Both the position numbers and the translations under genes were made by a program. From NCBI GenBank assembly GCA_030704615.1, contig CM060734.1, forward strand, positions 32,674,001 to 32,738,000: 64,000 nt of DNA. The letters are read 5' to 3'. Below, one piece after another: positions 24,101-55,273 of the stretch. The stretch comes from Takakia lepidozioides. Its lineage: Eukaryota > Plantae > Bryophyta. The notes below the pieces were generated by a model. It saw only the letters and a program-made list of their open reading frames with translations, ran no database searches and was not told the DNA's origin. Within the stretch, counting starts at the first letter, position 1; each line of letters starts with the position of its first letter.

Positions 24101-24330
24101 AACCTAGGAAACACCCAATCACACTAGTTCCTATGCTGAATTACGTCTGCTACTCTCTGTCATCTAATAGGCATTCAACTTTTTGCCTCGGTTGTTCCAC
24201 CATTCATTGGGGTCAACAAAGTATTCATTCCACACCCTTCTCCTCATCTCTGTTATCTGTTTTGGATACTTTCCTGCTGCCACATCGGCAGTTACTTGTC
24301 ATAGTCATTCCAAACCACCACAGATCCACC
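21190..24330 (-). pseudogene. Repeated N-terminal modules with an OSB-type PDF motif split by an intron, plus PPR starts
   Basis: KLWNEY.SDPSQWW.N.GKK | IHPRGPDFKHKITYDSLWINSYKKPAWV. A GT..AG intron of 182 bp lies at 22689-22870. Similar modules occur near 27600, 31930, 33430 and 38630. Confidence 0.7.
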
Positions 24331-30057: not shown

Positions 30058-30547
30058 AAGGCAGGCGAATCGAAAGCGGAGGGAAGTGAAGTTTGAGGCA
30101 GGCACGGAGGTCTGGTTGAACATCAAGAATTTCCGACTACCTCCGGAAGTGAGTCCGAAGTTCGTACCTCCGTATGCGGGACCCTTTCGCATTCGGAAGG
30201 TTATGAATGAGGATGTGTATGAATTGGAGCTGTCGGCAAACAGCAAGGTGCACCCAGTATTCCATGTCTCCATTTTGAAGCCTTACTTCAAAGATGAAGC
30301 GCGTCCGAATCGGCATCAAGTGTTGCGCCCGCCACCTATGCTGTTGGATCATGAAAATGAACCCGAGTACGAGGTGGAGGCAATACTTAAGTCAATGAGG
30401 TTCAAGAACCGAGAAACGGAGTATCTCGTCAAATGGAAGGGCTATCATCATGTGGAGGCATCTTGGGTGCGTGCCTCAGAAATGGGAAACGCATCCGAGG
30501 CGGTCGCAGCTTTCGAAGGGCGACCTCAAAAGCGGAAGAAGCGTTGA
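30058..30547 (+). pseudogene. Element A integrase C-terminus (GPY/F) and chromodomain
   Basis: YAGPFRI, HPVFHVSILKPY and YEVEAIL...EYLVKWKGY...SW motifs. Joins 19825 in frame (KRY-ERQANRKR). Confidence 0.9.
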
Positions 30548-30620
30548 TGGGGACATCAACCTTGGAGCGTGGGGGAGGAAATGCATGCTTAGCCCGGCTT
30601 AGCTAGCTTAGGAATCCGAG

Positions 30621-33600: not shown

Positions 33601-34865
33601 TTGACTAGTGTCAACAAAGTATTCATTCCACACCTTCTCTCTGTTACCTGTTTTCGGATACTTTCATGTTATCACATTGGCAGTATCATGTTAAAGTCAC
33701 TCCAAACCAGATTCACTCAACTAGCTAACTTGCAGAATTCAACATGGAAATTTAGGGCCGACTCTGACAAGAGGGAAAAACAGGGTGAAATGTGTTGAAG
33801 AAGGTGCCTGAACATTAGCGGTGCCTTGTTCTATCATTTGTGCCGCTGCCGTTGCTGTTTCTAGTTGACCATCTACCCAACGACCTAACATGCAGAATTC
33901 AATATGCATCTCAGGGCCGAGTCTGATGAGAGGGCAAAACAGGCTGAAATAGGTCGAAGAAGGCGCCCTCACCACATTGAGTCCTTGAAAATTCAATATG
34001 CATCTCAGGTCCGAGTCTGATGAGAGGGAAAAATAGGCTGAAATAGGTCGAAGAAGAAGGTGCCCTCACCACATTGTCCTTGACCTTGTGGCATGATCCA
34101 TGGAGGATCAACACGGTGCAGCTGAGCAGGCATATATTGAAACACAACCTGCTAAGACCGAGCTGACTCTCCCAAGAACCTTGTAAACATAATCAGGAAG
34201 AATATCAAATCATGGTACTTACAGGAGCCAAGAGCCCACATGTGCAGGATGGACAAACTTCTTCACATCGTACATTAAGAAAAAGCCACACCTTGCGATT
34301 GAGGTTGTCCCACCATCGTGAGTGACATATGAATGACATATGGTACAATTCCAGCTTTGACGTTGTCACCATGGACCTCTTTCCCCTTTTCCAGAGCTCC
34401 CAGGCTTGCACACGCATTGCAAACACAAACAAATCTGATGTGGTTGGGCTTCACCCCTTTGCGCAGAATCTGCTCATAGGTCTCAAAAGCATTCCTACCA
34501 CACCCATGCTTGGTAAATCCTGCCAACATTATATTCCACGTGATCAAGGTCGTTGAGGCATTCTGTTGAATGCTTGGTGAGCATCCATGATGCTCCCGCC
34601 CTTAACGTACATGTGACAAGGATGTTGAATAGAAAACCATTTGGCGTGAATCCACTTTGGATAATGTGCGTGTGCACCTGCTTTCCGACTTCCAGACCTT
34701 TCATCTTGATGCACTTAAGCAAGAGACAGACATAGGTATCTGAATGCCTCCTTGGTTTAAAGTCCGTAGAGCCTCTGTCAGTTTGTTTGCCTCACAAAGC
34801 ATCTTCACATGCACAGAAGTACTAAAAGAGGCATTGTGGACTCCCTCTCTCAATCCTCTTCAGAA
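30621..34865 (-). pseudogene. Mosaic of PLS PPR fragments from at least two subfamilies, with E-region remnants and PDF-motif modules
   Basis: ORFs 30723..31136, 32693..33028, 33201..33401 and 34275..34722. KKVAGRSWI (PG-box-like) near 32390. Confidence 0.8.
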
Positions 34866-35825
34866 GCTCGAGCACGCGGGGGCATCCCTTCCCCGCACTG
34901 CTTTTCGGGCATTTCGGGCAGGTTCCAAAGAAATTGACGACGACGATGACGTGTCTACGATGACCTGGCTACGATGACATGTCTACGATGATGTGGCGAC
35001 AAAACGTGGCAACGATGACGTGGCACTATGGCACCCTATTCATGCTCTACGCTAAACTAGCTTCCGACCCTCAATCGTCGCTAGAACTAGGGCTTCGCGT
35101 TGCTCCGCACTACTAGCGACGAATTCTGAGAACTACGTTCAATTTTTCACAAAAAATGGGTGAGTCATCCCCACGGTGTTACATGCAGAGATCATGTTTT
35201 TTGTTTTTTTCTGGAAGATTTCTGGAAGAAAAATGGTGGATCTGCATTTCAATGTTCAATTTTCACAAGCCGCATACCCAAATACCCTTACATTCACTAT
35301 ATGAACTTTCAAGCATCCACCATGGGATTGGATCTTGGTGGGTTAACGCTAGCTTTTGACAATATTCATGCAAGTTCGTCAAGGGCTCCATCCAAATCCA
35401 CACCACGAGAAACAAACAAATATGTCCAAATTTAAGATGCTGAACAAACTTGTGCACAGGGCTGCCCCTCTCATCAAGCTCATTAAAATTCGTATTCACT
35501 TCCATCTTCAAGCTTTGGACAAGCTCCACCACCCAAACCCAGAGTTAGGATAGTACTTTGATTTCCATCCACTGTCACCAGAATCAGTCAAAAATCACGT
35601 GCACTTGTGGGCGGGTTTCCCACCTATGCCGGGTAGACCCCACTATCAGGAAATGGTGGATGGTCTGAGTAGCTACACAGATCAATGAATGAAGCAAGAC
35701 ACTTGCATCTTGCACACTCAACAGTACATGATGGTCAGTACTCTCAGGAAATGGTGGATGATCTGAGTAGCTTCACAGATCAATAAATGAAGCAAGACAC
35801 TAGCATCTTTCCAAGAAAAATCCTT

Positions 35826-38215
35826 TCACCAGTAATCACCACAAGAACAAATCCCATCTTCAAAGTGGTGGAAAGTAGTTAGCGTCCCATACAACAATTG
35901 CTCGGCCAACAATCTTTGAGATGAATTTGGTGGAGGTGTGGCACTCTCCACACACTCGAAGATTCTGGATGAGTCGTGCTGATCAGCCCAAAACCAATGG
36001 CCAGCTTCTCACGATGGTGGCAAAGAGAAAATTCCTTTCCTCCATATCATGCAATAAAGAGCGTGTGTCAGGCACATACCCCGCCTCCTTCATCTGTTAT
36101 GAGACCCTCTGGTACAAGTGGGTCAGGGTAACAAGAGCAAGACTAACACTGGTAATAGGTATGAAGCTGCGTAACATCTTCAAAGTGGTGGAAAGTAGTT
36201 AGCGTCCCATACAACAATTGCTCGGCCAACAATCTTTGAGATGAATTTGGTGGAGGTGTGGCAGTCTCTACACCCTCGAAGATTCTTGATGAGTCGTGCT
36301 GATCAGCCCAAAACCAATGGCCAGCTTCTCACTGTGGTGGCAAAGTGAAAATTCCTTTCCTCTATATCATGCAATAAAGAGCGTGTGTCAGGCACATACC
36401 CCGCCTCCTTCATGTGCCCATACAATCTTCTCAGCTCAGCATGGATTTCCTTGATTCTGGGATGCAACTTGACATCTGGCTCCTTTCTAACCCCTGACCT
36501 TCATCATTCTTCTCACCTTTGCAGTATCATCCCACCTGCCAGCTGCAGCATAGATGTTTGATATAGCAACACATAAGTCGCGACATCCTGCTCATCCCAC
36601 TTGAAGATAGATGTTGCCACAACCATCTCCACATTGTCGGCATGCCATGGATTCCGCAGGCACCAAGCAAGGCCTTCCAGACCACAACATATTGGATTGA
36701 TTGGCATTTTATTAATCAGGTCCACTGCCTCATGTAGTTGGCCCGCGCGTCCAGAAGGTCCACCATGAAGCCAAAGTGCTTTATTGGCGGGGCACTGACA
36801 CCATGATCTTGACTCAGGAAATCGAAGTAGCGTCTTCCTTCATTGAGTAGGTCAGTGTGGCTGCATGCAAAGAGAACACATATAAAGGTGATACTGATGT
36901 GGTTCCACGTCACCCCTTCCCCCATCATATGCTCATAGGTCTCCAAGGCCTCCATCCTACGCCCCTGTTGTGCATATCCTGCAAGCATGGCGTTCCATGA
37001 CACCAAATCTCGTTCAGCCATACTGTTGAACACTCCTTCCGCATCCTCAATGCTCCCACATTTGGCATACATGTCCACGAGTGTATTTTTTAGAATCACA
37101 TCTGGTACAATTCCAGCTTTGGCGACGCAACCATGCACCTCTTTGCCCTTTTCCAGGGCTGCCAGGCTTGTACACGCCTTGCAAACGCACACAAACGTGA
37201 TGTGGTTGGGCCTCACCCCTTCCCCCATCATTTGCTCATAGGTCTCCAAAGCCTCCATCCCACGCCCCTGCTATGCATACCCCTACAAGCATTGCGTTCC
37301 ACGACACCACATCTCGTTCAGCCATAGTGTTGAAATTAACTCCCTTTGCATCCTTAATGCACCCACATTTGGCATACATGTCCACCAGGGCCGTGTTCAG
37401 GATGACATCTGGTACAATTGCAGCTTTGACGATGTCACCATGGACCTCTTTCCCTTTTTCCAGAGCTCCCAGGCTTGCACACGCATTGCAAACACAAACA
37501 AATGTGATGTGGTTGGTTTTCCCCCCTTCGCACATCATTTGCTCATAGGTCTCCAAAGCCTCCATCCCGCACCCTTGCTGTGCATATCTTGCAATCATCA
37601 CACTCCACGACACCACATCACGTTCAGCCATATTGTCCAATACTCCATTTGCATCCTCGATGCACCTACATTTGACATACATGTCCACTAGGGCAATGTT
37701 CATAATGACATCGGGTACAATTCCAGATTTGAGAATGTCACCATGGACCTCTTTGCACTTTTCCAGGGCTGTCAGGCTTGCACACACATTGCAAATGCAA
37801 ACAAACGTCATGTGGTTGGGCTTCACCCCCTTCGCACATCATTTGCTCATAGGTCTCCAAAGCCTCCATCCCGCGCCCTTGCTATGCATATCCTGCAATC
37901 ATCGCACTCCACGACACCACATCTCGTCCAGCCATACTGTCAAACACTCCCTTCATATATGTCCACGAGGGACATTTGGAACAACTGCAGCTCTGACCAT
38001 GTCGCCATGGACGTCTTTGCCCTTTTCCAGAGCTGCCAGGCTTGCACACGCATTGCAAATGCACAGAAACGCGATGTGGTCGGGCTTCACCCCTTCCCTC
38101 ATCATTTGATCATAGGTCTCCAAAGCCTCCATACCACGTCCCTACTGTGGATACCCTGCAAGCATCGTGTTCCATGACACCACATCTCGTTCAGCCATAG
38201 TGTTGAAAACTCCCT
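35826..38215 (-). pseudogene. PLS-E-DYW RNA-editing factor pseudogene with a tandemly duplicated DYW domain
   Basis: PPR array at 36716-38215. MKEAGYVPDT...H(S/R)EKLA...NLRVC..CH...FHHFEDG is present twice (~36177-36412 and ~35857-36092). The final copy ends CSCGDYW* at 35826. Confidence 0.9.
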
Positions 38216-40364
38216 TCGCAATTTTGGTATCCAGGTAGAAAACTCGCCCTTGAGACTAGCACAATTGAAATTCATTGAGACCAAAAAGGTGAAGAATCTC
38301 ACTCTATCACGCCCTAGTGCTCCATAGTGTTGCAATCCATTGCAGGAACCATCCTGCAGAATCAAGAAAGCCTTGACAATGAGCTATCTTTATTCCCTCC
38401 CAGAATAGTCTGGCTTAGGATGAGGATATCGTCGATACAACCCCTATTTCTCTGGAAGCCTGCCTGACCTTCACTGACTGTGAGAGAATGTACTCATAAG
38501 ACGTTGTTTGTCGTAGCCTTGTGGCCATTGACCCCGAGCCCAGTTTGAGCAGAAACCAAAGGGACAGAATCTACCTCTGTCAGGGGCTGACATTGGTAGT
38601 AAGACTTACCTTTATACATAGAATAGCCCAAATTTGTTCTAGCAAACACCCCAACCCTACTCATCACACACTAGTTCCGCTGCTGAATTGCTCCCAAGAC
38701 ATAATGTGCTGAAGAGAGAGAGGATGACAATTTCCAGCAAAGATTTGCAGTGCATCTTGTTGTCTGCTTCTCTCTGTAAGCTAACAGGCACTCACCCTTT
38801 TGCCTCAATTGTCCCACCATTGCCCATAGTACATTCGTTTCTGCTGAATTGCGCAACACAATTCCGAGCCTGGATCCGACGGCGCATTCATTCAATACAG
38901 CAAATGTACAACCTGGGAAATTCCATGGAACTCCTGGAGCTTATGAAGACACAATTCCGACCCCCATTTAATCCATGAAACACCGCACTTGAGCTTGAGC
39001 TCAAGAAGTCATTTTTGGTTTTTTCGGGCATTCCGGACAGATTCCAAAAAAATTGACGACGACGATGACGTATCTACGAAACGTGGCGACGATGACGTGG
39101 CACTATGGCACCCTATTTCTGCTCTACACTAAACTAGCTTCCGACCTTCAGTCGTCGTTAGAATTTATCCTAACATACAGGTTCGCAAGTGAGAGGGGAG
39201 CAGCGGGAGGTGGGGATTTGACAGCGCGCCTTGCCGGAACGTCACCGGTATGGCCATCCCCGGCGACCGTACTGGCAAGGCTCCCACGTGTGCATTCAAC
39301 TCGTCAGGTAAGCGTAGTCTTCTCCAATAACTTGTAAGGGCTTTTTGCCCCCCAAAAATATTTCATAATAAAATTAATCCGGGCTACAATCCCCCCGTCA
39401 TAATAATAAAACCAAATGAAAAATAAATCATATGATACTAATGTCCGATCCATCGGAAAACAAATATGAAACCATGACATTAAATGAAAATCCAAACAAT
39501 CTGAAATCCAAACCAATTGAAAATAAAAAAGATATCATAGAAACAACATTCATAATCCAAATCTGCTTGCCATCGTGTGAAAATGAGCCCCACAGTCATT
39601 ACACCGATCAAATGAATATGGAATAAAATCAATGTTTGTCTTTTCATAAAACTTGAATATACCAGTGTTGTACTGGTATCAGGTTTAGGACATACCAGTT
39701 GGGTATCTATAATGGTGGAAATGTTTTTCTTATATATATATATATATATATATTATATATTCAGAGAAAGGGGAACAGGGCCCTTTTAATCAAATTAAAA
39801 TAAAAAGTGTCAAAACAAGTAAACTAACCACCCCATCTAACCGTTATGAATATCTGCGGAAATCATTAGTTCCTCTTCCATCCAAAATTCGTTCGGGTAT
39901 AGACTCCTCTCATCCGAAAAAGTTCATTATTGGGTAATATCTTTTGGGATGTTTCAGAGGAATGTCAAGTATGTACAGTTGTACAACGGTGCAGGTGCCG
40001 TTAAATTTGAATGGAAATGGGCATCTCTTCTGGACTCTTTGACATGACAGCCAAATGGCGGCTCTGTCAGTCAACCTCTCAACCAATGCACTGTTGGGGC
40101 ACCTGTGAAATAACAATTGGATTCTTTCATTAGGGTTGACATTATGCACTCCGCAGTTGGGCACTCTGTCACCATCCGCTTGGTTCGCACAGGGACACAT
40201 TTCTTTGATGTGCCAACCCGCGTTAGGAGATCTGCAAGTAGGACCGATACCTGCAATTGTGTGTAAGGACGTCTTCTATGCAGCCAAAAACTTCGCTCTA
40301 ATACACTCTGCATTCAGAAGCACCATCGGACGGTGAACTCTGCGTTCAGAAGCAACATTGGCAG

Positions 40365-42304
40365 ATGGCCTCCCAGGCCATGGGCTCCCTTGACGCGGAC
40401 TTCTTCAGTGAGGATTACCCTGTGCCATTTTCTTACGAGGCTGGTTTTGTGGTGGTGCATGAACTCGTCCTCGCAACGCAGTTTCGGTTGGAAAATGGAA
40501 CTCTATTCCTTCAGAGGGAAGTGTACGATGCCAATGGAAAACTGCTCAAGTATGCGTTCCAGAAACCTTCGCATACTGCACCAACCACACAATGGAGAGT
40601 GTCTCCAGGCAGATACAGGGTGCTTAGTGCTCCTCTGAGACAGTCTGCAGGATCGTTCGTAACTCCTAGCACGGCAGCATCAGTGGCCCAGGAGAAAACA
40701 CCCGTGGTTGTCAAAAAGGAGACGAGTACCGTTAACACTGTAGTTGAGCTTTTCGACTCATCCTCCGATGACGCATGTGCACTACCGCCCGTGGATCAGC
40801 CATGTCCACATGAAGAAGCAGATGTGGAGGAGATCACTAGTGTCATTCCTAAACTGAAAGCCATGGGTGGGATGGCAGGATTCAAGAGTGAGTTGAGGGG
40901 ATAGACTGGAGCACTTTCAATATTCAGAGGGTGGCATTCTTGCCGGAATCTTTTGATGGTAATACTATTTTCGAGCTGCCTCCTCCTGGTCGCGTGGGGG
41001 GAATTTCCAGTCTCTTGGAAGGAATGGACAAAAAGCACGATGGGCACCCTTGGTGCCGCACAAAAACCTCCAATATTCACAACAACGACAACCTCATATT
41101 TAGGCGAACAGTCTGTAATGGGCACCTGAAATGCGAGAACATGAAATGCAGACACTTCGCATTGTCAGGTGTGCAAAACCAAAGCGAATGGGATGGTGTC
41201 AGTGAGAATCCATTCAAGCCTGGGGTGACACCACCATACAGTAACACTTTTGTGTGCAAGTTCTGTAGGGTACCACCTTGCTGCCTTGCTTTGTGTGGCG
41301 CCAAAATGTATTATGTGGTGCATCGATTCAAAACCCTGACTAGAGCCTGTGTCCATTTCGGTTTTCACAACCACCCTGTGTCCAAGGGGGATTATAGGGA
41401 GAGCGTTGACACAGTCTCGCGTCTGATAAGGCAAGAGTTGGATACCAATCCAACTGGAACCACATCTGCAATTGCCATGGGGGCGAGCAAGTACTTTCTG
41501 GAAAGCCGTATTCTGTGTGCATCAAATTCGGTTGGAGGAATACTGGAGGGACCAGCTTTGGACATTGTTATGGACCATTTCTCCACTTTGACTTCTCCAA
41601 ACATTAGGAATCAGGTGAACGCTTTAAGAATGGGCTCTGGGAGCCGAGGTTATATGGACAATATTATGGATTTGAAGAAAAGGAGCATGTACGACTACAT
41701 CCAAGATAGCGTTTTCCCGGGACAAGGAGCCAGGAAAGTGTTCTTGTTCAAAATGTCCACAAAAGGTGAGGGCAGCGGGGTCAGCTTGGTTAAACGTATG
41801 CAGAAGGGTGGCGATCTTGGCAGCTGCTTCCTTATGTTCGATCACGTCAAGAGGGTTAAAGACTGGACCACAATGGCATGTCATGTTTACGACCCTGTGT
41901 ATCAGCGGGTCATGACAATTGCAGTGTGGGACATGCAGTCAGAGGACACAGATTCACAGCAGCTCATGTGGGAAGCTCTCATTCGTGTTATGGCCTCCAA
42001 TGGTCTCCCATCTCCTAATTTTGTTGGTTTTATGGCCGATAGTGCTCAAGCTAACTTCAACGCTATCCGCATTGTGTTCGGGACAGGAGATCCAAAAGTG
42101 CCAATGCCATTGGACACAATCCCTGGACAAACACACAAAGACATACATCAAGCCAGATATGCAGAGTATGCATCGTCAACTGTGCAAACAGTACAAAGAC
42201 GCCAAAACTATGGGGGAAGCGAATACATTGTTCCAGACAATTCGTGCCTGGTGGTACTCATCTGGAGCGGCATCAAAGGACAGCATGAGGGCACTGGAAG
42301 ACTG
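40365..42304 (+). pseudogene. MULE-like DDE transposase, N-terminal part with a GCM-like zinc domain
   Basis: W...CNGHLKCENMKC, candidate catalytic Asp in LMFDHV and GFMADSA, and a CxHW remnant. Interrupted at ALED|WFAFW by element B copy 2. Confidence 0.72.
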
Positions 42305-42656
42305 TGTCAAGTTAAATAAGCACAGTGTGAAAACAGCTAGAATAAAACTAGTTATTTGTATTTAACACTTGGATTTAGGTCAAGTGTTAAATCAGGTGTC
42401 AAGTTTAGTTTGACACCTGGTCTGTCTTATCTTCACGAGAGCGGCAGTCGCGCGGCTCATCTCTCTCGAGTTGAGCCTGCGCGACCGAGCTCCTTCCTGC
42501 GTTTAGAAGCTGTGTGTGTTTATGATGGGAGTGTAGGTTGTTGTGGGGTGGAGTCCCCATAGCTTGGGGTGCCCCTGGCTCGACTTCTATTTCAAAGAGT
42601 GATGATTTTGGTTTCCATGTTTTGTGTCAACAGTGTGTTAAAGAGTCTTTCTATCA
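42305..42656 (+). repeat. 5' terminal A repeat (352 bp) of element B copy 2
   Basis: Appears identical by eye to 53623-53974; the ORF track gives identical 68-aa translations at 42356 and 53674. Confidence 0.95.
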
Positions 42657-42668
42657 CTCGAGAGAGAT
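42656..42668 (+). promoter_or_regulatory. Candidate self-priming primer-binding site
   Basis: ACTCGAGAGAGAT is the exact reverse complement of 42459-42471 inside A. It is conserved in copy 1, and there is no TGG-type tRNA PBS. Confidence 0.7.
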
Positions 42669-43549
42669 CACCTCTTACCTGTGAGTGCAAGGTAGGAGTT
42701 GAGGGTTAGCACTTGTATGATTACCTGTGTGAGAGTAGTGCTTAGTTTAAGAAGCTTTAAAATATATATATATATATATATATGCAGGTTTCGATCAGCG
42801 TTGGTTCTGGCATAAGGCCGCCGGGCAGGACGGAGCTACACTGCATGGAAGCAGCCTTCGTTTTGGTCAGTGAGGAGATATCATGGTGGAGCAGCAGGAT
42901 GATGCGCAAATGTAAGGAAAACTGTGTCTGTTGGTAGCTACTGACAACCGCAACTCTGTCCCTGGACTTCTTCTCCGGAGGTGGAAGCCTGTGTGCAGCG
43001 TGCATGCAAGAGTGTGGTTGTGACAGGGGAACAAGCGCTTGCGGTTGCATTACTACTGCAAGTTGGGCACTCGGTGCGTCGCTATAACTGCAATTGTACA
43101 GGAGCACTGTGAGAGGCAGATTGTTCTGCAGCCTTGCTATACCTGGTCAGTCCAATGGTGACACATCCATACCTTGTTAAAGCAATATGGACAGTTGTCG
43201 ATGAGGACGGCTCTATGAAGGACACTGCGAGCTAAGAAGGGCTCGGGTACAAAAGCACACACTGGAGCGTTTAAGCAAGTTAGGGCGGGAAAAAGAAAAA
43301 CAGGCCCAAATAGCCAAGCACATGAAGTAGTGAATGTTGATGGAAGAAACCTGTGACACTCCCATTTTGCTGGAGGAGATCGTTGATTAATTGATGTCCC
43401 CGGAGCTTCAGGACAGGCCCTACAATCGCTGGCTAACAAGACTGATTTACAAGCAAAACCTGCAGGGCAATCTGCCGAGAGCCTCATCTGCTTCTCGGAG
43501 GGGTTTCCGTAAGTTCCTTCTTTCCCAGGCCCTTGTGTCGACCTTCTCC

Positions 43550-43935
43550 ATGTTCCTTTGTCTCTCTCACCATCCTGCTGCCTCGGCAAGCTCGCAGTGG
43601 AGACCTGCTTGCGGGCTGTTTTCTGGATTTAGAGTGGGTTTGAAGTATAGAAAAGAACTTGGAGATTACAGTGGGCAGGTCGCAGCCGGTGCGTCCTTGA
43701 CGTGGAAGGCCACAACGGAGAGGAATGTGGTAGCCAGGGCTGCTGGAGATGCCCCAGAGTCAGAGGTCGAGATTGTTCCTGAGGTCACCATCCCAGCCAT
43801 AGTTTCCCCTCAAGTCAAAAAGCATAATTGTTAAAGAAGAAGGCTAAACGATTGGAGCTTCGAAGGAAGAGGCTGGTGCGCAAGCGCAAGTTAAGGAAGA
43901 AAGGCCAATGGCCTCCTTCCAAAATGGCCAAATCA
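43550..43935 (+). pseudogene. PSRP5: Captured plastid-specific ribosomal protein PSRP5 (cL37) coding sequence
   Basis: Transit-peptide-like N-terminus (..VVARAAG), then LKKKAKRLELRRKRLVRKRKLRKKGQWPPSKMAK. One frameshift; no intron visible. Confidence 0.82.
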
Positions 43936-44582
43936 AGAATGTATAGGGCCCAGGAGGGTTCAAGGATAAGAAGAAAAGAAAGTATCACGTCTGCGGGAGG
44001 TCCAACAGGTCCAAGGAGCACACGTACAACACCACAGTAGAACCACAGACATCAAAAAAAAAAAGGGCAGCTCAATTCTCAAACTTCACACACAACAGGT
44101 GTCGCAATCAACGGCCAAGCTCTTGTATGCTCTGCTGCTCTGCTCCTGTTGTGCTGAATGTTGGTGAAGTGAAGCTGTGGTTTCGATGTGGCAGATGTGT
44201 TGTGCAAGTTCCAGCAACCATCCACGAATCGTTCGATTGCAGGCCGCCTGTCCATAAGCCATGAGGGTGTTGCGCAGTGCATCTCTTGATCTGCTCTTGA
44301 AATCGCCCCTACCTGGACGAACTACCTGGATGTGTTGGGAACTCGTAGGTGACTTGGGAGCAGTTATAATGACAAAAGCGTTTTGGTGTTAAAAAAAAAA
44401 AAAAAAGCCTTTTTGATCTAATTTAAATGTTTAAAGAGCCTGGTTGGTCATATCTTTGTCAAATGGACTCCGTTTGACTCAGTTTTTGGGGGAATAGCTG
44501 CAGAAAGGGGAAATCTACCTATCTAGACCTGGTTTCTGTTTTTGGGACTCTGCTAAAAATCTATGGAATTTTTAGAGTGTGA

Positions 44583-45413
44583 GTGTGCCATGAAAGATCC
44601 ACAATCTTGTTTCTAGAACCTGTGCTGGTCTATATGAGAGACAAATCTGTGGATGTACTCCTTGTAGGCTGGGGGAAGGAGGACGAATTGAAGGGCAGGT
44701 CTCTTCTCTTAGCCTGTGCACCAAGGGGACAGGATCTATGTTTCCCCCAAGGCACTCAGACTGATTTGAGTGGAGAACAGTTGTGACGGTGTGATTGCAT
44801 ACTGGGAGTCAGGCCTTATCAGTAGACAACAGACTGCTTCAGTTGGCATTGAGGGCCTCATATCGCCTTGGGCCGTCAGAACTCTGTTGGAGCCAGCAGT
44901 TCTGCAGCTGTAGGTGAAATACCAAAGTGGGTGGAAGCAGGTATGGAACACAGCCCAAGACAGCCCCGGGGACCAAGGTGTTCAGCCACAAGGCCGTGGT
45001 GTACTGGAGCAGAGGAGCAGGATTCGACACAAGTTTTCTGCAATCAGACAGGTTTGCAACCGGATACGCCTGCACCAGGGCAACCACGATCTGGGGTTCA
45101 TCAGCAAACATGTTTGTTGTGCGTGAAGGGAGGCAGTCATTCGCAATGATGACCCCGCAACCGTCTCAAAGCTTTCGAGTTGAAGACTATCAGACCCTAC
45201 CCTTTGTTTTCTTTAGTGTTCAGTGAGCGGGAATAGCAGATGTTGCATTTGTCTCTACCTGGCAGAAAGAGGAGGAGGGTTGGTTAGAGCGAGCTACTGT
45301 AGCTTGGGACAAGGTTAGTGGCAGGTTTCTGGACATAGATATACCTCCTACCCCTTATACCATCATGCAGAGCGAGGCACTATTGAGAGAAGTCTGGCAG
45401 TTGAATAGCATAG
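44583..45413 (+). pseudogene. Extra unknown ORF of element B copy 2 (many indels)
   Basis: Homologous to 15639-16470 minus (QGTQTDLSGEQL, SSSAAVGEIPKWV, DYQTLP). Confidence 0.5.
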
Positions 45414-45938
45414 ATCAGGATTAGATCTTGCTTGGTCGGGCTTTCTATTCTTCCCTCCATCTCTTACTATTTTCATACCTTATACTTGTAGTTGCCAAAG
45501 CCTCTTGGTGGAGGCCAGTCAGTCCGGGGTTTGGGCTGGGATATTCTGCAGGATCACAAGCGTTGCTGCTGGATTTTGGGTGTGGGTGTGTTGATGTTTT
45601 GATTTTCTTGTGTGTTGGATCCCCCCCAACACCTGCATGCTTGACTGTGCGCCATGTTGGTTTTTGTGTGGGCGCTTGTGCTTTCATAGGGATTAGGCCG
45701 GATTTGATCACCGGTCAATCCTAGAGTATGCTGTCGGTGGTGAGGCTGGATGATGACCAGCAAGACCACCAGTGGTTTCTTCTATGGTGAGGCTGGTTTG
45801 ATGACCAGCCAACCATAGGAGTTCTTGCGGTGGATGCAGGTGCAGGTGCCCTGAGCCATTGGGATATGAACCCTTAGACTGCAACAGGTGCCCACCCGTG
45901 TCACTATTAGATTAGGTACTAGAGCCTTATAGTGTCAC

Positions 45939-48895
45939 GTGGAGGAGTGCACATTGTGAGTGTCATTACGGAGTTACCCAAGGGGTTTGGAGGGGAGTAC
46001 GGCCTACAGGCAGTAACAGTGAGAGTGGGTTCACAAGACGAGGTATTCGTTTCAGACCACCTTCACCGCCACCCTCAATTACTGTAGAGTCAGACACAGA
46101 CTCGGAGGCTTCACAACAGGTGTGGCAATTTCCATTCGCCCATTGTGTTGTGGGAAACATGGAGGAGATGTATGGAGCTACCAAGGGCCTCGTAGTACTC
46201 TGGAGCTGTGGGCACAATCGAGTTGGATGACTTTATCCAGGAGATTCGACACTGGTGTGATTTGCAGCAGGATGCCAATCCACATCTATTCACCCATTCA
46301 CCCCATTCATGGCGTGGAACGGGACTGTTCCAGCATTTGGAAGGCCGCCTATGGACGATTACCACGAGTTCAGGCGAGGACATGAAGCAGAGATTGAGGA
46401 GTGGAGTATGTATTGGTCACCTGACTACATCTCCATTACTCGAGGCACGACGCGACCAGTAGCTTGCCTCAGTACCAATAGCTCCCACTGCCAGCACTAG
46501 TAGTGGAGCAAGTAGTGCGTGGTACTTCTGCAGGTGTACCAGTTCAGAAGTGCTACTACTCTCCTCCCTGCCACAGACTACAACACATGTGCCTAGATTC
46601 AACCCGGTGGTGGAGTTCTTCCAGGAGTTGCGGAGAACTACCAAGGTGTACGGACAGAGAAGCTGCGAAGTTTGCAAGACTTCCAGCGCAAACCCAGTGA
46701 GAGCCTGCGAGAGGCGTACACTCGTATGAGGCGCTTGATAAGTGTGACCCAAGTTTACTGAAGCTCAGGCAATCCAGTTTTGGTATGGAATTCTGGACAA
46801 GGAGCTCAAGAGAAGGGTGCGAGATGCAACCCTGTTACAAGCAGCCCAACCCACATTTAGCAGATGTGTTTCTGCTGGCTGAGCGATTGAGCTCAACATG
46901 GTGGAGGAGCGAGTTGTTACAATTGGATTGGTAGGACATGCCTGTACTACGGTGCACAGTTGTCAGCCCACAAGCACAAGGACTGCCCAACAGCGTGGTC
47001 AGGGGGCAAGGTTGCCCAGCCCATGGAGCTTACACAGGGGACCTCAGGTGCAGAGGCCCGTGGCAATCTTTGCATGCCAACAGCAACCAGGGGGTGATTG
47101 TTGGACATGGCGGAGGACCCCATGTCAAGAGAGATTGCCCAGAGAGTGGCAGAAGGCCGGCACAAGCACAGCCTGCACAGTTGCAGTGTGGGCATTGTGG
47201 CAAGTATGGGCATGGAGATGCCCAGTGTTATGACTTGCATCCTGAGTTGCGCCCAGGCCAGTTTCCAAGGGAACAATGGTGGCCGGGGGCGAGGTGGACC
47301 AGCCCAAAGAGGACGAGGTGGTCGGGCACGAGGTGCAGGCCAAGGCAACCTCCACATGGCCAAGGACGCGGAGGTCAGGGTGTTGACCAAGGCATGGCCA
47401 ATCGGCTTCAGCAGCTAGAGCAGAGGCTCGCTGCCATGGCTATAGCTCAGGCGGTACCGGCTCCCAGGCGGGATGGCCCACCTCCTGCTCTGAGGGAGGA
47501 GATATGGGCGGAATGGGATTCATGTGCGGAGCAGCACTACCATTAGAGCAGGTGGAGTCTGCTGCAGCCGTGACTCGAGGAGCAACACGAGTTCCTGAGC
47601 CACGAGGTGCAGAGGTGGAGTTGGATCCACAACGTGGGAGGCAAGCCGTCAGGCAAGGCTGCCTCAGTCATTCACCTTGGCGGAGACAGTGTCAACGCCA
47701 TCCATGGCACCTAGTTCTCGCCCGACTGTTACCGAGGCGGAGGTTACTATGCCATTGGGGAGAGCTACCCGTGCAGCACTGACACCTACTACCAGGCTAG
47801 TGCAGCCGGTGTGTTATTGGGAGCAGCCACCTCTGTGTGTCAAGCCCCACTGTTCTCGGCAACCATGATTGCGACGCCGGGAGTGAGACCAGCTGCAGTG
47901 TTCAGACTAGCAGCAACACTCTGCGAGAGTGGAGAGGTCACTTCATCTTCTGCGGAGTTAGTAAAAGGTGTAGTGGCAGAGGGATCCTCGGATTTGAGGG
48001 TCAAGACTGCCACGGCAGCGCCCTGGCAAGCTGCAGCTGCCAGATTGACGGAGCTGCCAGCTAGGCCAGCCTTTGAGCGCGCCATGGTGACACCTGGAGT
48101 TGTCTTGTTAGACAACCAGGGAGGCATTTTCACTTTGAGTGGACCGGCAGGCAAGAAGTACCGGCCACTGCGGGTCTTGTTGGACTCAGGAGCTCAGCCA
48201 CTGATGTTGGGCAGAGCTGCTATTGCAGGTTTGGGCCTCATGGAGGCGGATATGGAGCCTTGTCCTTTCCAGATACAGACATCTCTGGGAGGATCAGAGC
48301 AGGCTCGCGGCATGACACGGCATCAGTTGGCTATTAGACTGCAGCCGGATCATCCTGTAGATGGCTCAGTGATGCGAGCCAAGGCCATTGTGACAGACGC
48401 GGTCTCTTACGATGTCCTCGTTGGTGGGGCAGTGTTATACCCCATGGGCTTCACCCTGGATTTCTGGGAGGAGTCAGCATCCTACAGGCCTGGATGGCAG
48501 TCAGGGGATGGTCGCCGTGCACAGCTCCCTGTGACATTCATTGGGGGTATTGCAGCTGCTCAGCGGGGCAAGATGCCAACACTAGCCGCCTTCACAGCTG
48601 CAGTCAGCTGGCCTGGAGAGTTGCTGGAAGGCAATGCCCATGCAGAGGATGTGCCACCTCCAGCAGAGCAGGATGACATGCATGGTACGGCGGAGTTGCC
48701 TGCCATGGTTGCTCACACTCCGTTGTGGGTACGAGCAAGGATTTGCAGCACGCTGCTGATGGACGGGTGCAACAAGCTTGGTTAGAAGCTTTTGTACCGT
48801 CAGGAGAGGAGGAGAGTGCGGTGATTGTACCAGGGCCACCTCAGTTGTCGCCATTGGACACCACACCTCTTGTGTGGCAGCGACCGGATGAAGGC
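45939..48895 (+). pseudogene. gag: Element B copy 2 gag and protease
   Basis: GTIELDDFIQE, HVKRDC and CGHCGKYGHGDAQC knuckles, and LLDSGA in ORF 47811..48785. Dense indels before 47800. Confidence 0.82.
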
Positions 48896-50142
48896 ATATG
48901 CCTTCTGGACTTATTTGGCGGGATCAGCACTGGATTGGCTGCAGTGCTGCAGGCAGGTGTACGAGTTCGACGTTACCTGTATGTGGAGAGGGATGAGACT
49001 GCACGACGCGTCTCACTGCGCCATGTTGCTCAGATGGTGCAGCAGCATCCTGAGTTGTTGCCGGTGTCTGCAGTTCGTGGATATCAGCAGCCTTGCCAGC
49101 AGACATTGCGTTGCTGGGGGCGCAGGATTTGGAGCGGGTTGGCTCCATTGATCTGGTAGTGGCAGGTTGGCCCTGCCAAGGGCATTCATCAGCCGGGCAT
49201 GGCAATGGATTGCGAGACTCGAGGACGGGTCTGTTTTGGGAGATGGTGCGGATTTTGCGCCACTTGCAGCTTCATCAGGCTGTATCTCCGGCATACATCT
49301 TGGAGAATGTGCCACTGATGGGTGATTCTCGGGCCAGGGTGATGGCCAGTGTGCATCAAGTCCGGTCGTGGCTTGGGTCAGCAGTATTGCTGGATGCAGC
49401 TGCAGTGGGGTCACGGGCTCATCGTCCACGACTATGGTGGACTAACTTGATGCCACCCGCACTGCTCAAGCGTGCATTTGATGGGGTGCAGCGGCCAGCA
49501 CACCTCACCGTGGATGGCATTTTGGACACAGGAAGGCAGTCTCAACGTGTGAGACACGATGACCGTTCGCCTTTGGCAGTGGTCAACAGAGTGGGTCAAC
49601 CACGAGCAGCATTACCTACACTGCTCAGCTTCCCAGGATCCCATGCTTTTCGGGATGGTGGACCTGGCCTCCTGTGGGATGCTCAGTTGCAGCAGTTAGT
49701 GGAGCCTAATGCCGACGAGCGAGAGCGGGCTATGGGGTTTTCCACTGGGACCACGGCGGTGCCTTCTCTTTCTGAGGCATCACGTCGTCAGGTGTTGGGG
49801 CAAGCAATGGATCTCAATTGCTTGACCTGGATTGTCAGCTTGGCTATGGCTGAGCAACGTAGAGTGCGGAGTGCACTTCCCTTGATGGTCTCTCTGCCTA
49901 CCGAGACGGTACAGGCAGCGAGTGGGGGCGAGCCGGTGAGGACCACGAGGTGTAGACATCCATGGCACATGTGGGAGGTGCTCGAGGTTCAGAGGGAGTT
50001 GGCAGCGAAGGCAGCTGTGATGGATGAGGTTGGGGATTCTTCTCGGGATGAGGAGGTTCTCAATGATGAGATGATGGGGCAGGATGAGGCCTTGTCATTG
50101 ACTGAGCAGGAAGGGGGTACTGCTCAAGAGGTTGCAGCATAG
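48896..50142 (+). CDS. DNMT3-like C5 cytosine methyltransferase domain (one apparent frameshift near 49090), ending at a UAG
   Basis: Motifs I (LFGGISTG), II (YVERD), IV (GWPCQG), VI (ENV), VIII (HRPR), IX and X (LGQAM) occur in canonical order in ORFs 48725..49159 and 49093..50142. Confidence 0.92.
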
Positions 50143-53100
50143 CAACCACGGGACGCGTCCTCTACCTCTAAGCCCACTGGACTTAAGGTTGCAGTTACGG
50201 AGGACAATTGGGAGCCTGATATTGGACCCATTGTCACCGGAGGAGAGAGACGACGTATACGGCGGTTCCTGAGGGCTTACAGGAATTGCTTTGCCTTCAG
50301 TTTGAAGGACTTGGGAGCACTGAAGGGTCAAGAGATCCGTATTGAGTTGGCCACTGACACGCCAATCTTTCGGAGACCCTATAGATACAGTGACATGGAG
50401 AGGTCTTTGATTCAGATGAGGACTCAAGATCTCTGGGAGGCAGGTTTGGTGGAGCTCTCTGGTGGAGAGTATGCTTCAGCCACAGTGATGCCAGCTAAGA
50501 AGGATGTCTATGGCAATTGGACGGAGAGACGTATGTGCGGTGATTACCGGCCTGTAAATCGTCAGACCAAGTCCGATAGGTATGCCATGCCAACACCAGA
50601 GGAGATCTTTGATGCCATTGGGCATTCCAAGGTCTTTAGCACGTTGGATTTACGATCCGGATATCACCAGTTGCCGATCAAGGAGGCGGATAAGCAAAAG
50701 ACGGCATTCTGGGGGATCAATGAGCACGGGAAGGATTGCCTATACCAGTGGCGGTTCTTACCATTTGGGCTTAAAAACGCTCCCGCTGAGTTTCAAAGAG
50801 TCATGGACAGGATTCTAGCAGGGGTGGAGTTTGCTCGGTGCTACATAGATGACATCATCATCTTTAGTGCTACGGTGGAGGAGCATGAGAGACACCTTCA
50901 GGGGGTATTTGAGCGCTTGAGGACGCACGGATTGAAGTTACATCCGGGCAAGTGCAAGTTTTTCCACAACCAGATTGAGTATCTGGGTCACATGATATAT
51001 CCTGGAGGATTGGGGGTACAACAGACTAAGGTAGAGTCCATTGCACAGGTTCCACGCCCCACGGATGTGAGCCGAGTTCGAGCTTTCATGGGGTTAGCAA
51101 ACTATTACAGACGGTTTGTTAAGGGATTTAGTGCCATTGCAAAGGCTCTAACCAAGCTGACCAAGGTGGACCAGGAGTGGCAGTGGGAAGATGAGCAAGA
51201 ACAAGCTTTTCAAGAGCTCAAGGCGAGGTTGACCTCGGCGCCCATCTTGAGACGACCTATCAGGGGGCGTCCTTTTCAGCTGCATACAGATTGGAGCATG
51301 CTGGGGCTTGGAGCGGTGCTCACACAGGTGGATGATGAGGGAAGAGAGTTCGTAGTGGCTTATGCTAGCCGCTCGAACAATGCTGCAGAGTCTAAGTATA
51401 GCTCATATGAGGGAGAATGCTTAGCTGCAGTGTGGGCCGTGGCACACTTCAGGTGCTATCTATACGGCAATCTCTTCACCCTTGTCACGGATCACCAACC
51501 ACTCAAGTGGTTGATGGAGTCAGACAAGCTTACGGGGAAGCTTGCACGGTGGGCACTCATCCTTCAAGAGTATGACTTTCAGGTGGTGCATCGACCGGGT
51601 TTGGTCAATCGAAATGCAGATGGGTTGAGTCGCAATCCATGCACGAGCCAGCAGGATGACACTGGAGCTCGGTGGCATGGTGAGACGGACGAGGAGATGG
51701 TGCCCGGATGGCATGCATCTGCATTTCTGTGTATCTTGGCAGCGGAAGGCCAGGTTGGACCTACAACAGGGATGACTGTAGATCAAGTGTCTGAGGACCC
51801 TGAGGCCAGCAATGAGCAGGGTGGCGCCAAAGATATACATGAGGATTCAGTTGTGTTGGACTACCTCCGCAGTGGAGACACGGCAGCCACTATGACTGCC
51901 AAGGAGAGGGATCGGATCCTACAACGAGCCAAGAGGTTCAGGTGGGAGGGGACACACCTGCTCCGAGTGTGGGAGGATGGTCGAGTGAGGATTGTGCCTC
52001 ACCCAACACAGCGGGCACGGTTAGTGCGGCATGCCCATGAGGAGTTGGGGCATTTTGGGGTGCGACGCACTCATAGTCTACTGCAGGGGCAGTATTGGTG
52101 GCGTGGTATGCACACAGAGGTGCAACAATTTGTGGCTAGGTGCATGGTGTGTGACAGGGTGCGTGCTTCATTCAACGCCCCTACTCCACAATTGCACCCT
52201 CTTCCGATCATGGGATTGGGCTACAGGTGGAGTCTTGACTTCGCAGGGCCGTTGCCACTGACCATGCGCCACAACAAGTACGTGTTGGTGATGGTGGAGC
52301 ACTTCTCCAAGTGGATTGAATTGGTTCCATTGCCTGATAAGGCTAGTGAGGGAGCTGCGTATGCATTCCTGGATTGTGTGCTTAGCCGATTCGGTGCTCC
52401 AGCTGAGGTACTCACGGACCAAGGGAGAGAGTTCTTGGGGGAGTTTCAGGCTTTGTGTGACAAGGCCTTGATAGACCACCGCACCACTTCTCGGGATCAT
52501 CCTGAAGCCGATGGCTTGGCAGAGAGAGTTGTTCAGACAGTAAAGAGGGGTTTGCGCAAGTATGGCTTGCAGAAGGGACACCTAGGAGATTGGGACCTTC
52601 AGTTACCCTGGTTAGCCATGGGCTACAGGTTCAGCAAGCAAGCATCACTTGCCTCCTCCTCACCATACTTTCTTCTCTTTGGCCGAGAGCCGGATTTGCC
52701 TACATCCATTCGCAGAGAAGCTGCTACAGTTCTTAACCTTGACGATCCGGACGTGTGGGCACGTGCATGTGAGCAGCGTGCAGAGTTGTTCAAGAGAGTC
52801 ATGCCTATGGCTTTCGAGAACCTTGCCATTGCACAACACCGTGATACGTTGAGGTATGCTACCATACGTGGTGGGGGCTATCGTCCTGGGGTTCGGAGAT
52901 TCAACCCTGGTGACTATGTCTATCTGCAGCAGACTGCTCCTACGACCCTGGATGTGACTGCAGGACGTGTTATTTTGAGGGTTCGAGAGGTCTTGCCCTC
53001 AGGCGTCTTGGTCTTGGAGGGTCGGGATGGCATCACTTGGAAGGACCATGTGCGTAATTGTGCGCCATGTCACCTTCCGAATGTCGATGGCAGGATTGAC

Positions 53101-53277
53101 CCAAACCTGGCAGTGGTATCTGCAGGTTTGAGGTGCATGTTGTGTGGGTCTGCTAAAGGGGCAGCCACCATGCTGGTATGTGATCGGTGCTCTAGAGGTT
53201 GGCATATGGGATGCTTGACTCCACCTCTTGAGATGGTTCCGGATGGGGATTGGTTATGTCCACATTGCATTGGATAG
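50143..53277 (+). CDS. pol: Open RT-RNase H-integrase-PHD polyprotein frame
   Basis: Open from the UAG to 53277. Motifs: RRMCGDYR, LPFGLKNAP, YIDD, HTDWS, HHCC (HEELGH..CMVC), D-D-E (SLDFAG, TDQGREF, GLAERV) and a C-terminal C4HC3 PHD at 53134-53268. Confidence 0.96.
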   Translation, partial: QPRDASSTSKPTGLKVAVTEDNWEPDIGPIVTGGERRRIRRFLRAYRNCFAFSLKDLGALKGQEIRIELATDTPIFRRPYRYSDMERSLIQMRTQDLWEAGLVELSGGEYASATVMPAKKDVYGNWTERRMCGDYRPVNRQTKSDRYAMPTPEEIFDAIGHSKVFSTLDLRSGYHQLPIKEADKQKTAFWGINEHGKDCLYQWRFLPFGLKNAPAEFQRVMDRILAGVEFARCYIDDIIIFSATVEEHERHLQGVFERLRTHGLKLHPGKCKFFHNQIEYLGHMIYPGGLGVQQTKVESIAQVPRPTDVSRVRAFMGLANYYRRFVKGFSAIAKALTKLTKVDQEWQWEDEQEQAFQELKARLTSAPILRRPIRGRPFQLHTDWSMLGLGAVLTQVDDEGREFVVAYASRSNNAAESKYSSYEGECLAAVWAVAHFRCYLYGNLFTLVTDHQPLKWLMESDKLTGKLARWALILQEYDFQVVHRPGLVNRNADGLSRNPCTSQQDDTGARWHGETDEEMVPGWHASAFLCILAAEGQVGPTTGMTVDQVSEDPEASNEQGGAKDIHEDSVVLDYLRSGDTAATMTAKERDRILQRAKRFRWEGTHLLRVWEDGRVRIVPHPTQRARLVRHAHEELGHFGVRRTHSLLQGQYWWRGMHTEVQQFVARCMVCDRVRASFNAPTPQLHPLPIMGLGYRWSLDFAGPLPLTMRHNKYVLVMVEHFSKWIELVPLPDKASEGAAYAFLDCVLSRFGAPAEVLTDQGREFLGEFQALCDKALIDHRTTSRDHPEADGLAERVVQTVKRGLRKYGLQKGHLGDWDLQLPWLAMGYRFSKQASLASSSPYFLLFGREPDLPTSIRREAATVLNLDDPDVWARACEQRAELFKRVMPMAFENLAIAQHRDTLRYATIRGGGYRPGVRRFNPGDYVYLQQTAPTTLDVTAGRVILRVREVLPSGVLVLEGRDGITWKDHVRNCAPCHLPNVDGRIDPNLAVVSAGLRCMLCGSAKGAATMLVCDRCSRGWHMGCLTPPLEMVPDGDWLCPHCIG

Positions 53278-53524
53278 TGGGAGTGGATACAACCATGGGA
53301 GGCTAACAAGAAATGCAAGGCCCAGCTACTAGGAGACCTTGAACACACGAGATCTTGGCTCAAGTTCATAGATTGCAAGACGGCGACTAACGATGGGGCT
53401 ACTCTTGTACCCGGCCTCTTGGTTGATAGAGTTTGAGCTCGATAAAACAGTGATAGAGGACTTAGTACGGCTGTGGCTATTACATCTTGTAGCTATCTGG
53501 AGGTAGGGGACCTATCCACCAGCT

Positions 53525-54060
53525 AGGGGGGCGATTGTGCTAGACTACTTTATTGTGCATATATGTGTGGTGTGGTTTGGACAGCGATGTAGTTGTGTAG
53601 CGATATGTATGCGCACGACAGCTGTCAAGTTAAATAAGCACAGTGTGAAAACAGCTAGAATAAAACTAGTTATTTGTATTTAACACTTGGATTTAGGTCA
53701 AGTGTTAAATCAGGTGTCAAGTTTAGTTTGACACCTGGTCTGTCTTATCTTCACGAGAGCGGCAGTCGCGCGGCTCATCTCTCTCGAGTTGAGCCTGCGC
53801 GACCGAGCTCCTTCCTGCGTTTAGAAGCTGTGTGTGTTTATGATGGGAGTGTAGGTTGTTGTGGGGTGGAGTCCCCATAGCTTGGGGTGCCCCTGGCTCG
53901 ACTTCTATTTCAAAGAGTGATGATTTTGGTTTCCATGTTTTGTGTCAACAGTGTGTTAAAGAGTCTTTCTATCATTGTGCTAGACTACTTTATTGTGCAT
54001 ATATGTGTGGTGTGGTTTGGACAGCGATGTAGTTGTGTAGCGATATGTATGCGCACGACA
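53525..54060 (+). repeat. PPT followed by the B1-GC-A2-T-B2 terminal block of element B copy 2
   Basis: AGGGGGGCGA at 53525-53534, B1 at 53536-53620, GC at 53621-53622, A2 at 53623-53974 and B2 at 53976-54060 (85 bp, matching B1). Confidence 0.95.
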
Positions 54061-55273
54061 ACTGGTTCGCATTTTGGCACTTCCGTTACCGACAGCGGGG
54101 AGCGGCCATGACAACGGTGAGTGGTTTGCATTCACCTTCGTTTGGGTGCTTCGGATATATCTTTCAGGGTCCAATCCTAATATCGGCTTTGTGTTTTTTG
54201 CCTTGCAGCATATGTCCATTGAGGAGATGTCGGACATGCCTTCCTGCAATCTAGCGGAGACAGTGCACAATGCGTGGTTGCAGCAATCCCACTTCTCGAC
54301 ACCACGTGTTCCCCTGGATCAGAGATGGAATTGCGGAACATCCACAGGTGAGGGCTATTCTGCCCCAGACCGGACCCCTGCATCAAACACTGTCACTGCA
54401 ATGGTTGAAGACCAAAACGTGGTGCCGCATATAATCGAGTCCATGGGCTTGGACGAGGTTTGGCATATAGAACGCACAAGTGCTGGATCGCGTGTGAAAT
54501 GCACGGCGATCAGGGCCAGCAATCATGAAAAATGTACATCATTAATATCCAGAGGGAAAGAACGCACTGCAGCTCCTATATTCACGGGTTTGTTTCTCCC
54601 TTACGGACAATGCGAGGCAAAGAACCACAAGTTTTGGTTTTGCGCTGACGATTGTGGGAGATGTGTGCATGGGACAGGGAGGCCTTCCGTGGTGAGGAAG
54701 CCTATTCCACCAACCGTGTGGCCTGTGAAGATGGGCACAGGTTTCACTCACCGAGAGATCGCAATGCTGGAAGAGGCGGGTTTCTCCCTAGCCAGATATT
54801 CCATTGCACGTGAAGGTGCTTCAAGTACAAGCGGTTCACGGGTACCTCCGCCTGACGCTCACTTGTGGCCAACCAGACGGAATGGGAAGCTGGTTCGACG
54901 ATTCCCTCCAACCGCAGAACACTACGACAAAATTGAGTCCGCCAGAATGCTTGACGCTCGTGTTGCGGGTACAATGGAAGTGCCTGATCCAGGGTATGGT
55001 CGGGTGTTCACCATGATCTCATCCGCATCTACGCTGCAGGACAGGACGTACGACATCACTGTTTCCAATTTTCCCAATTGTACATGTCCTGATTTTGTTG
55101 GTATGCTTTCAAGTAGTTTGGGAAAGAGAGGGAAGTTCATACCGTGCAAACACCTTTACTTCGTCTTCTTGAGAAGGATGGTTTGTGATCCAAAGCACGA
55201 CTTCTTCATTCACCAAGCCACTATGAGTTTCAACGAAGTCAACACACTTCTACAGCGGGATACAAGCCCATAA
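54061..55273 (+). pseudogene. MULE-like transposase C-terminal part with SWIM zinc finger
   Basis: WFAFWHFRY, CNLAETVHNAW (candidate catalytic Glu) and SWIM CTCPDF...PCKH. Confidence 0.75.

Follow-up and report, generated by a model that had tools for sequence, protein, structure and literature searches.

Retrotransposons that carry a cytosine methyltransferase have been described before. The closest is KnitGypsy-Dnmt3, reported from the alga Klebsormidium nitens by de Mendoza et al. in 2018, and the same paper describes SymbioDIRS-Dnmt3; in its yeast tests the K. nitens domain was inactive, human DNMT3B was inactive too, and the DIRS Dnmt3 domains methylated CG (PMC5890265). Papers from 2025 and 2026 mention 'streptophyte' DNMT3 retrotransposons, citing the 2018 work, and their trees may include bryophytes. 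The hosts are algae that are difficult to work with, and for that reason the purpose of a methyltransferase in a retrotransposon has been an open question from 2018 onwards. Within the literature covered (subscription journals and Repbase lie outside this scope) we found no description of such elements in land plants, of their stop codon or of their integration route.

The window analysed here is a 64,000-nucleotide stretch of the moss Takakia lepidozioides (contig CM060734.1). It contains two copies of an 11.8-kb Ty3/Gypsy element, copy A at 42305-54060 (+) and copy B at 18897-7043 (-), which align at 95.6% over 9.7 kb (Table 1). The element has the order Gag-protease-RT-RNase H-integrase, a DDE integrase, TG...CA ends, 4-bp target-site duplications (TSDs), a primer-binding site (PBS) and a polypurine tract (PPT). 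The internal region is not flanked by a pair of complete, identical LTRs; both copies show instead a split layout, A-internal-B-A-B. A DIRS/Ngaro identity was rejected on the rve integrase and the 4-bp TSDs, and the scanned pieces of the 5′ ORF gave no tyrosine recombinase match. Phygy/Selgy were rejected by description only, the accessible text of PMC6317226 calling them short with no mention of a PHD finger or methyltransferase. We assign the element to the KnitGypsy-Dnmt3 lineage as a young Ty3/Gypsy retrotransposon, real and under selection; the reading of the window made earlier from sequence alone (the sequence-only reading) had likewise proposed a young family in a land plant.

Table 1. 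Features of copy A, with copy B in the last row; positions are those of the window
Feature	Position	Strand	Remarks
Left 4-bp TSD	42301-42304	+	again at 54061-54064
5′ repeat A1, 352 bp, TG...CA	42305-42656	+	same sequence as A2
A1-internal 12-nt stretch complementary to PBS	42459-42470	+	predicted RNA 5′ end and self-primer
PBS, immediately 3′ of A1	42657-42668	+	predicted Tf1-like self-priming; covaries among related loci
5′ cargo specific to copy A	42670-44330		absent from copy B
5′ region common to both copies	44337-45420	+	broken extra ORF, no family
gag with CCHC zinc knuckle	46159-48030	+	start approximate; many single-base indels in both copies; homologous to the N-terminus of Marchantia Mp_4g09160
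Aspartyl protease (LLDSGA)	48033-48500	+	weak Pfam match, E 0.011
DNMT3-like C5 cytosine methyltransferase, motifs I-X	48869-49863	+	single-base break near 49088
Stop and CAR-YYA context (TAG CAA CCA)	50140-50148	+	predicted readthrough signal; conserved
Predicted extended stem-loop 3′ of stop	50153-50255	+	weak support
Intact 1044-aa pol ORF: RT, RNase H, integrase (H2C2, rve), C-terminal PHD finger	50143-53277	+	Pfam
PHD finger lacking aromatic-cage Trp	53134-53270	+	predicted unmethylated-H3K4 reader
PPT-like motif	53521-53534	+	precedes B1, not A2
Repeat B1, 86 bp	53535-53620	+	
Palindrome at B1/A2 joint (GACA GC TGTC)	53617-53626		predicted internal integrase site
Repeat A2	53623-53974	+	
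Repeat B2, right element end (...CA)	53975-54060	+	
Copy B, full, same layout	7043-18897	-	own 4-bp TSD; DNMT ~12203-11215

The copies differ by 150 indel events, 113 of them of a single base. Indels run at about 20 per 500 bp in gag and the 5′ region (44337-48000) versus 0-3 in pol, an excess that probably reflects uneven polishing of the assembly. In one public run, possibly the source of the window itself, 39,846 contigs match 3.6 kb of the element, a figure that hints at a large family and is not a copy number. Both insertions lie inside other mobile elements: copy A interrupts an ORF resembling a SWIM-finger transposase (40892-42316, 54041-55270), and copy B another Gypsy element (4212-6878, 18841-19868; read by eye). 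The window also holds an array of broken PLS-class PPR repeats (19850-38220), whose DYW remnant (35800-36340, minus strand) agrees with the earlier description of the host as rich in PPR-DYW genes.

Each copy has a cargo of its own, 1.7-1.8 kb long, between PBS and shared 5′ region (42670-44330 in A, 16720-18528 in B). That of copy B holds fragments, apparently intronless, of a host TPR gene and, on the opposite strand, a kinesin motor (Pfam); the TPR fragment shows 65-78% identity to proteins of lycophytes, ferns, gymnosperms, mosses and liverworts alike. No Pfam match was obtained in 15 scanned pieces of the copy A cargo. The family seems to capture pieces of host mRNA. The extra ORF of the shared 5′ region (15642-16335 on the minus strand in copy B) matched no Pfam family, nothing in the Atlas and none of 66 related metagenome loci.

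A complete C5 methyltransferase lies between protease and RT, as the sequence-only reading had claimed. In copy A (48896-49815) the motifs follow the canonical order with catalytic residues in place (I LDLFGG, II YVE, IV GWPCQ, VI ILENV, VIII AHRPR, IX ERERAMGF, X LGQAMD), as they do in copy B on the minus strand near 12190-11270, and the Pfam search that it had proposed (PF00145) matches both copies above cut-off (E 3.7e-13 and 2.1e-13). It had also noted that the frameshifts fall at different positions, and within the domain there is indeed one single-base break per copy, near 49088 in A and at the place matching 49589 in B. Contigs of public runs include copies free of the copy A breaks (at 48726 in four of four runs, near 49088 in three of four), which makes the breaks either specific to one copy or errors of the assembly. 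Intact Gag-protease-DNMT ORFs occur in Marchantia, Mp_4g09160, Mp_5g06330 and Mp_Vg00370 among them. The single continuous frame assumed earlier is borne out for protease and DNMT by these unbroken contigs and Marchantia ORFs; it does not extend to RT, which is separate, with TAG at 50140-50142 intervening. The sequence-only reading mentions neither a programmed stop nor the PHD finger nor the split terminal repeats.

A PDB profile search with the pieces from both copies placed DNMT3A first (E 6e-10), followed by DNMT3B, M.HhaI and DRM, and its alignment contains the three DNMT3A motif comparisons that had suggested a DNMT3 resemblance. An AlphaFold model (pLDDT 89) was made of a natural homolog, P0001, which is 72-74% identical to the window protein and stands in for it here. 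Its best structural matches are DNMT3B (Z 28.0, rmsd 2.6, 279 residues aligned) and DNMT3A (Z 26.6); M.MpeI (Z 24.6) and DNMT2 (Z 20-22) rank lower. Foldseek also puts DNMT3 first, and DRM is absent among the best 50 structure matches. A DRM identity was rejected, since the motifs are unpermuted and in canonical order, as had been stated earlier. Judged by its closest sequence and structure matches, the domain is DNMT3-like. The catalytic Cys is present in 127 of 129 full-length homologous domains, the motif VI Glu in every one of them and the second Arg of motif VIII in 128, and from its sequence the domain is probably catalytically active on DNA.

Selection was assessed by dN/dS across copies, as the sequence-only reading had suggested. 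The DNMTs of copies A and B differ by 22 synonymous and nine replacement changes over 329 codons (dN/dS 0.14, Fisher p 1e-7), which is purifying selection and not neutral decay between the copies. In a comparison of eight sequences the ratio is 0.07-0.21 between families, with dS near saturation, and 0.44-1.0 among the copies of one moss-like metagenome family, which have therefore decayed after insertion. The N-terminal half of the DNMT (48869-49320) has a dS of 0.21 between A and B, and RT-integrase (50143-53000) one of 0.003-0.006; the copies are therefore mosaic, likely through template switching between family members. Observed/expected CpG (0.43-0.66 in the element, 0.54 in the PPR remnant) is uninformative on self-methylation.

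Homolog searches returned 71 and 32 matches, with identities of up to 75% for those that carry an organism name (Marchantia, Calypogeia and Sphagnum), and a cluster search 261 clusters at E up to 1e-30, 150 of them among the matches listed. Relatives were located in Marchantia, Calypogeia, Sphagnum and Closterium, and the DNMT has the same position in liverwort, moss and algal relatives. In one cluster (P0075) four of the 15 listed Marchantia members lie on the small V sex chromosome, going by their Mp_Vg names. Among viral contigs, 47 pattern matches included no relative of the element.

We built a DNMT tree (FastTree, midpoint root) from 102 full domains accompanied by a second domain and the two window pieces, leaving out 27 DNMT-only proteins. 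It splits into 30 tips with the DNMT after the protease (support 0.99) and 74 of the 104 with the DNMT between RNase H and integrase (0.97). The window copies belong to the first group together with liverworts, Closterium and the K. nitens protease-DNMT protein KFL_013780020, which falls in their clade with support 0.99 and which we infer to be a copy of KnitGypsy-Dnmt3. Of the phylogeny proposed earlier, with plant DNMT3, DRM and algal retroelement domains, this tree of retroelement domains supplies the grouping with the algal retroelement DNMT. The sister clade (P0096, P0099, P0123 and P0191 among others) has a C-terminal PHD finger, and a Scenedesmus sp. pol was the only named organism among eight clusters looked up. 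An RT tree gave the same two groups; it contains no K. nitens RT, its outgroup is two partial pieces and its base is unsupported. On these trees the DNMT domain has changed place within the polyprotein. Because the window copies group with the K. nitens protein, the element is most likely the land-plant branch of KnitGypsy-Dnmt3 rather than a separate capture, and the lineage most likely reaches beyond the single capture, specific to K. nitens, that was proposed at first.

The stop that separates DNMT from pol reads TAG CAA CCA in both copies; it lies 115 codons past motif X and shares the frame of pol. Across the contigs of four runs, which come from three samples, positions 50138-50149 show no variant at 1% or more, and 50136, 50137 and 50150 vary; the invariant 12-base run is weak evidence alone, since only 16 of 141 positions are variable. 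Further evidence comes from the 66 metagenome loci, most of which closely resemble Sphagnum-named proteins (judged by eye). All 43 that hold both DNMT and RT have a stop (TAG or TAA) at this point, 41 have CAAC after it, and 32 keep the frame across it. We rejected a nonsense mutation or assembly error, as the stop is conserved in copies A and B and in every one of these 43 loci. Five Marchantia ORFs (1278-1281 aa) and one from Calypogeia stop 98-100 aa past motif X; three more distant relatives have no stop, and their DNMT ORF continues into RT. UAG-CAR-YYA is the type I readthrough motif of tobamoviruses (PMC3542737), and it occurs exactly in the window copies, L007 and L041/L042. Of 39 distinct metagenome junctions two match CAR-YYA exactly, 33 read CAA CCC ATG, one base off, and 11 have TAA. 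A stem 3′ of the stop scores z -2.95 in the window and +0.7 to -1.7 in ten loci, with three of 25 pairs covarying. The sequence makes it likely that RT-RNase H-integrase-PHD is produced by readthrough of this stop. Gag-protease-DNMT would then be the major product, and DNMT would therefore far outnumber RT and integrase in particles.

The terminal repeats are unusual as well. The copy A repeats are identical (352/352 and 86/86, to which assembly collapse may have contributed), and those of copy B differ by four substitutions. Loci L021, L038 and L061 show the split layout and 4-bp duplications likewise, one with a mismatch. The 12 nt following A1 are complementary to a stretch that begins 155 nt into A. 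In four loci (L038, L053, L004 and L061) the sequence differs on both sides and pairing over 9-16 nt is nonetheless kept; in L049 the pairing is 7 nt, and L021 has lost the partner. In Tf1 and Tj1 reverse transcription is self-primed, the PBS there being able to pair with part of the 5′ repeat (PMC4600332), and by this pattern the Takakia element probably primes its own reverse transcription too. A PPT-like motif precedes B1 in both copies and eight loci, and the B1/A2 palindrome GACA-GC-TGTC is exact or near-exact in the four of four loci that reach the joint.

The HIV integrase can cleave the palindrome at a 2-LTR junction (PMC1905944). If the true LTR is B+A, ordinary reverse transcription would yield a linear cDNA B-A-internal-B-A, and joining of its ends a 2-LTR circle with an A/B joint, as at A2/B2; integrase cutting after CA on both strands of the B/A palindrome of the 5′ LTR would then give A-internal-B-A-B. 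We put integration from a circle opened in this way at somewhat short of an even chance. The model leaves unexplained that all nine distinct insertions begin with A, the A-B-A-internal-B form being found in none of them, and why the other palindrome is spared.

Taken together, these observations suggest a function. Gag-protease-DNMT would be made at capsid level and the DNMT packaged with Gag; the protease would free it, and it would methylate the element's own cDNA, either ahead of integration or as it takes place. New copies would in this way enter silent chromatin pre-marked or evade surveillance of naked DNA. The sequence-only reading had likewise named the cDNA or the insertion site as possible targets. 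From sequence, we lean slightly towards this reading as a whole, with capsid-level DNMT, pol by readthrough and methylation of the element's own cDNA; for the cDNA as target, taken by itself, the chances appear evenly balanced. Against it stand the isolated Klebsormidium domain, which gave no methylation in yeast, a result called inconclusive in PMC5890265; the DNMT-less Gypsy elements that thrive in the same window; and the dN/dS values of the moss-like family.

The PHD finger bears on the first alternative, in which the DNMT, freed by the protease or imported into the nucleus, methylates the host insertion site or competing elements instead of particle cDNA. The structures nearest to this finger are CHD4, PHF12, KDM5A/B PHD1, ATXR5 and PHF21A, whose PHD fingers read the H3 tail unmethylated at K4, and in all 44 motif-matched relatives the place of the cage Trp is taken by Gly, Ala or Pro. 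The balance of this comparison is marginally in favour of a PHD that directs integration to H3K4-unmethylated chromatin. DNMT3 itself pairs a methyltransferase with an H3-reading ADD domain, the same functional pairing as here. In the sister clade the DNMT adjoins the integrase, and both window copies inserted within transposon-like ORFs. In the window clade, however, the stop lies between DNMT and PHD, and most of the DNMT would therefore be made without a PHD; the K. nitens methylome is ordinary despite these elements (PMC5890265). We consider host-directed methylation unlikely.

Less likely still, the fold and catalytic residues might be kept for RNA methylation or binding, or for a structural or chaperone role on circular cDNA. 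Capsid-level dosage would fit a binding role, the Pro preceding the catalytic Cys (PC motif) is Glu in 59 of the 129 homologs, and the yeast result for the Klebsormidium domain points the same way (PMC5890265). But the nearest structures are DNMT3 (Z 28) rather than DNMT2 (Z 20-22), the active-site Cys, Glu and Arg are nearly invariant, and related DIRS Dnmt3 domains methylated CG in yeast (PMC5890265).

About as improbable, on an estimate that partly overlaps the other readings, is a stop that truly terminates, with pol made by re-initiation, splicing or a separate RNA and the split ends by a template switch on linear cDNA. The 33 junctions one base off the readthrough motif carry an AUG that could re-initiate, 6 nt after the stop in most metagenome loci, and stop-less fused versions exist. 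Yet this AUG is missing from the window copies and L007/L041, all with exact CAR-YYA, and the frame is kept in 32 of 43 loci. The first Met of the window pol is residue 85, within conserved RT sequence, which makes re-initiation unlikely in this family.

Finally, a passenger or artefact (a neutrally decaying host DNMT3 fragment, a nested insertion or an assembly chimera) might be suspected from the 150 indels, 113 of one base, and from the unrelated host-gene cargo, but is extremely improbable given the presence of the element in independent runs, the purifying selection on the DNMT and its shared position in liverwort, moss and algal relatives, the last two leading us to reject a nested insertion or passenger.

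The preferred reading, of a packaged DNMT that methylates the element's own cDNA, can be taken further. The element may belong to an ancient green-plant Gypsy lineage, active to this day in land plants, that expresses its DNMT3 at capsid level through readthrough and primes itself. Its substrate for integration would be a 2-LTR circle in place of linear cDNA; the DDE integrase would open this circle at an internal palindrome, the DNMT would mark the long-lived circle (perhaps choosing which palindrome is cut) and the PHD would lead it to H3K4-unmethylated chromatin. This full combination is doubtful. Marchantia polymorpha is a genetic model, and its intact Gag-protease-DNMT ORFs open activity, target and readthrough to direct tests. 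Through these elements bryophyte genomes also gain hidden DNMT3-like genes, with possible consequences for their non-CG methylation and for how many DNMTs are counted in plants. If the split ends do come from an opened 2-LTR circle, an LTR element would normally use what retroviruses mostly make as a side product, and this would explain why LTR-pair finders miss such elements.

Several features of the element have counterparts elsewhere. With Tf1, Tj1 and Tcn1 it shares a PBS complementary to a stretch of the 5′ repeat (PMC4600332), and with tobamoviruses the UAG-CAR-YYA context (PMC3542737), here placed after Gag-protease-DNMT rather than after Gag. The retroviral 2-LTR junction is likewise a palindromic CA-xx-TG joint (PMC1905944), whereas the palindrome of the window element lies inside the inferred LTR. 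The Tf1/Tj1/Tcn1 and retroviral comparators differ from it in having ordinary paired LTRs and no DNMT. Host DNMT3s (animal DNMT3A/B, moss PpDNMT3) share fold and motif order with the window domain, which is only ~20-25% identical to DNMT3A/B, lacks PWWP and ADD, and is intronless and inside a polyprotein. DRM is permuted, unlike the window domain, and DRM residues 229-347 match its N-terminal part.

Other retrotransposons also carry a C5 methyltransferase. SymbioDIRS-Dnmt3 also has split direct repeats (PMC5890265), but DIRS elements use a tyrosine recombinase in place of a DDE integrase with 4-bp TSDs. The EpiLTRs carry DNMT4-related enzymes with DAM and a chromodomain (bioRxiv 10.64898/2026.05.21.726589). 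KnitGypsy-Dnmt3 shares the Gypsy domain set, the unpermuted Dnmt3-type domain, purifying selection and, by the legend of Fig. 4c, a DIRS-like repeat layout (PMC5890265). The window element differs from it in its land-plant host, in its conserved in-frame stop between DNMT and RT where KnitGypsy-Dnmt3 is described as one ORF, and in its PHD finger, a term with no occurrence in the accessible text of PMC5890265 (its figures may show one); that text likewise does not describe a self-priming site, TSDs or palindrome. A DNMT within a Gypsy element is an idea already published, and the sequence-only reading was right that the concept is not new, the element sharing it with the algal ones and being of one lineage with that of Klebsormidium; what is added here is the land-plant range, the predicted capsid-level expression set by a conserved stop, the predicted self-priming and the circle-type ends.
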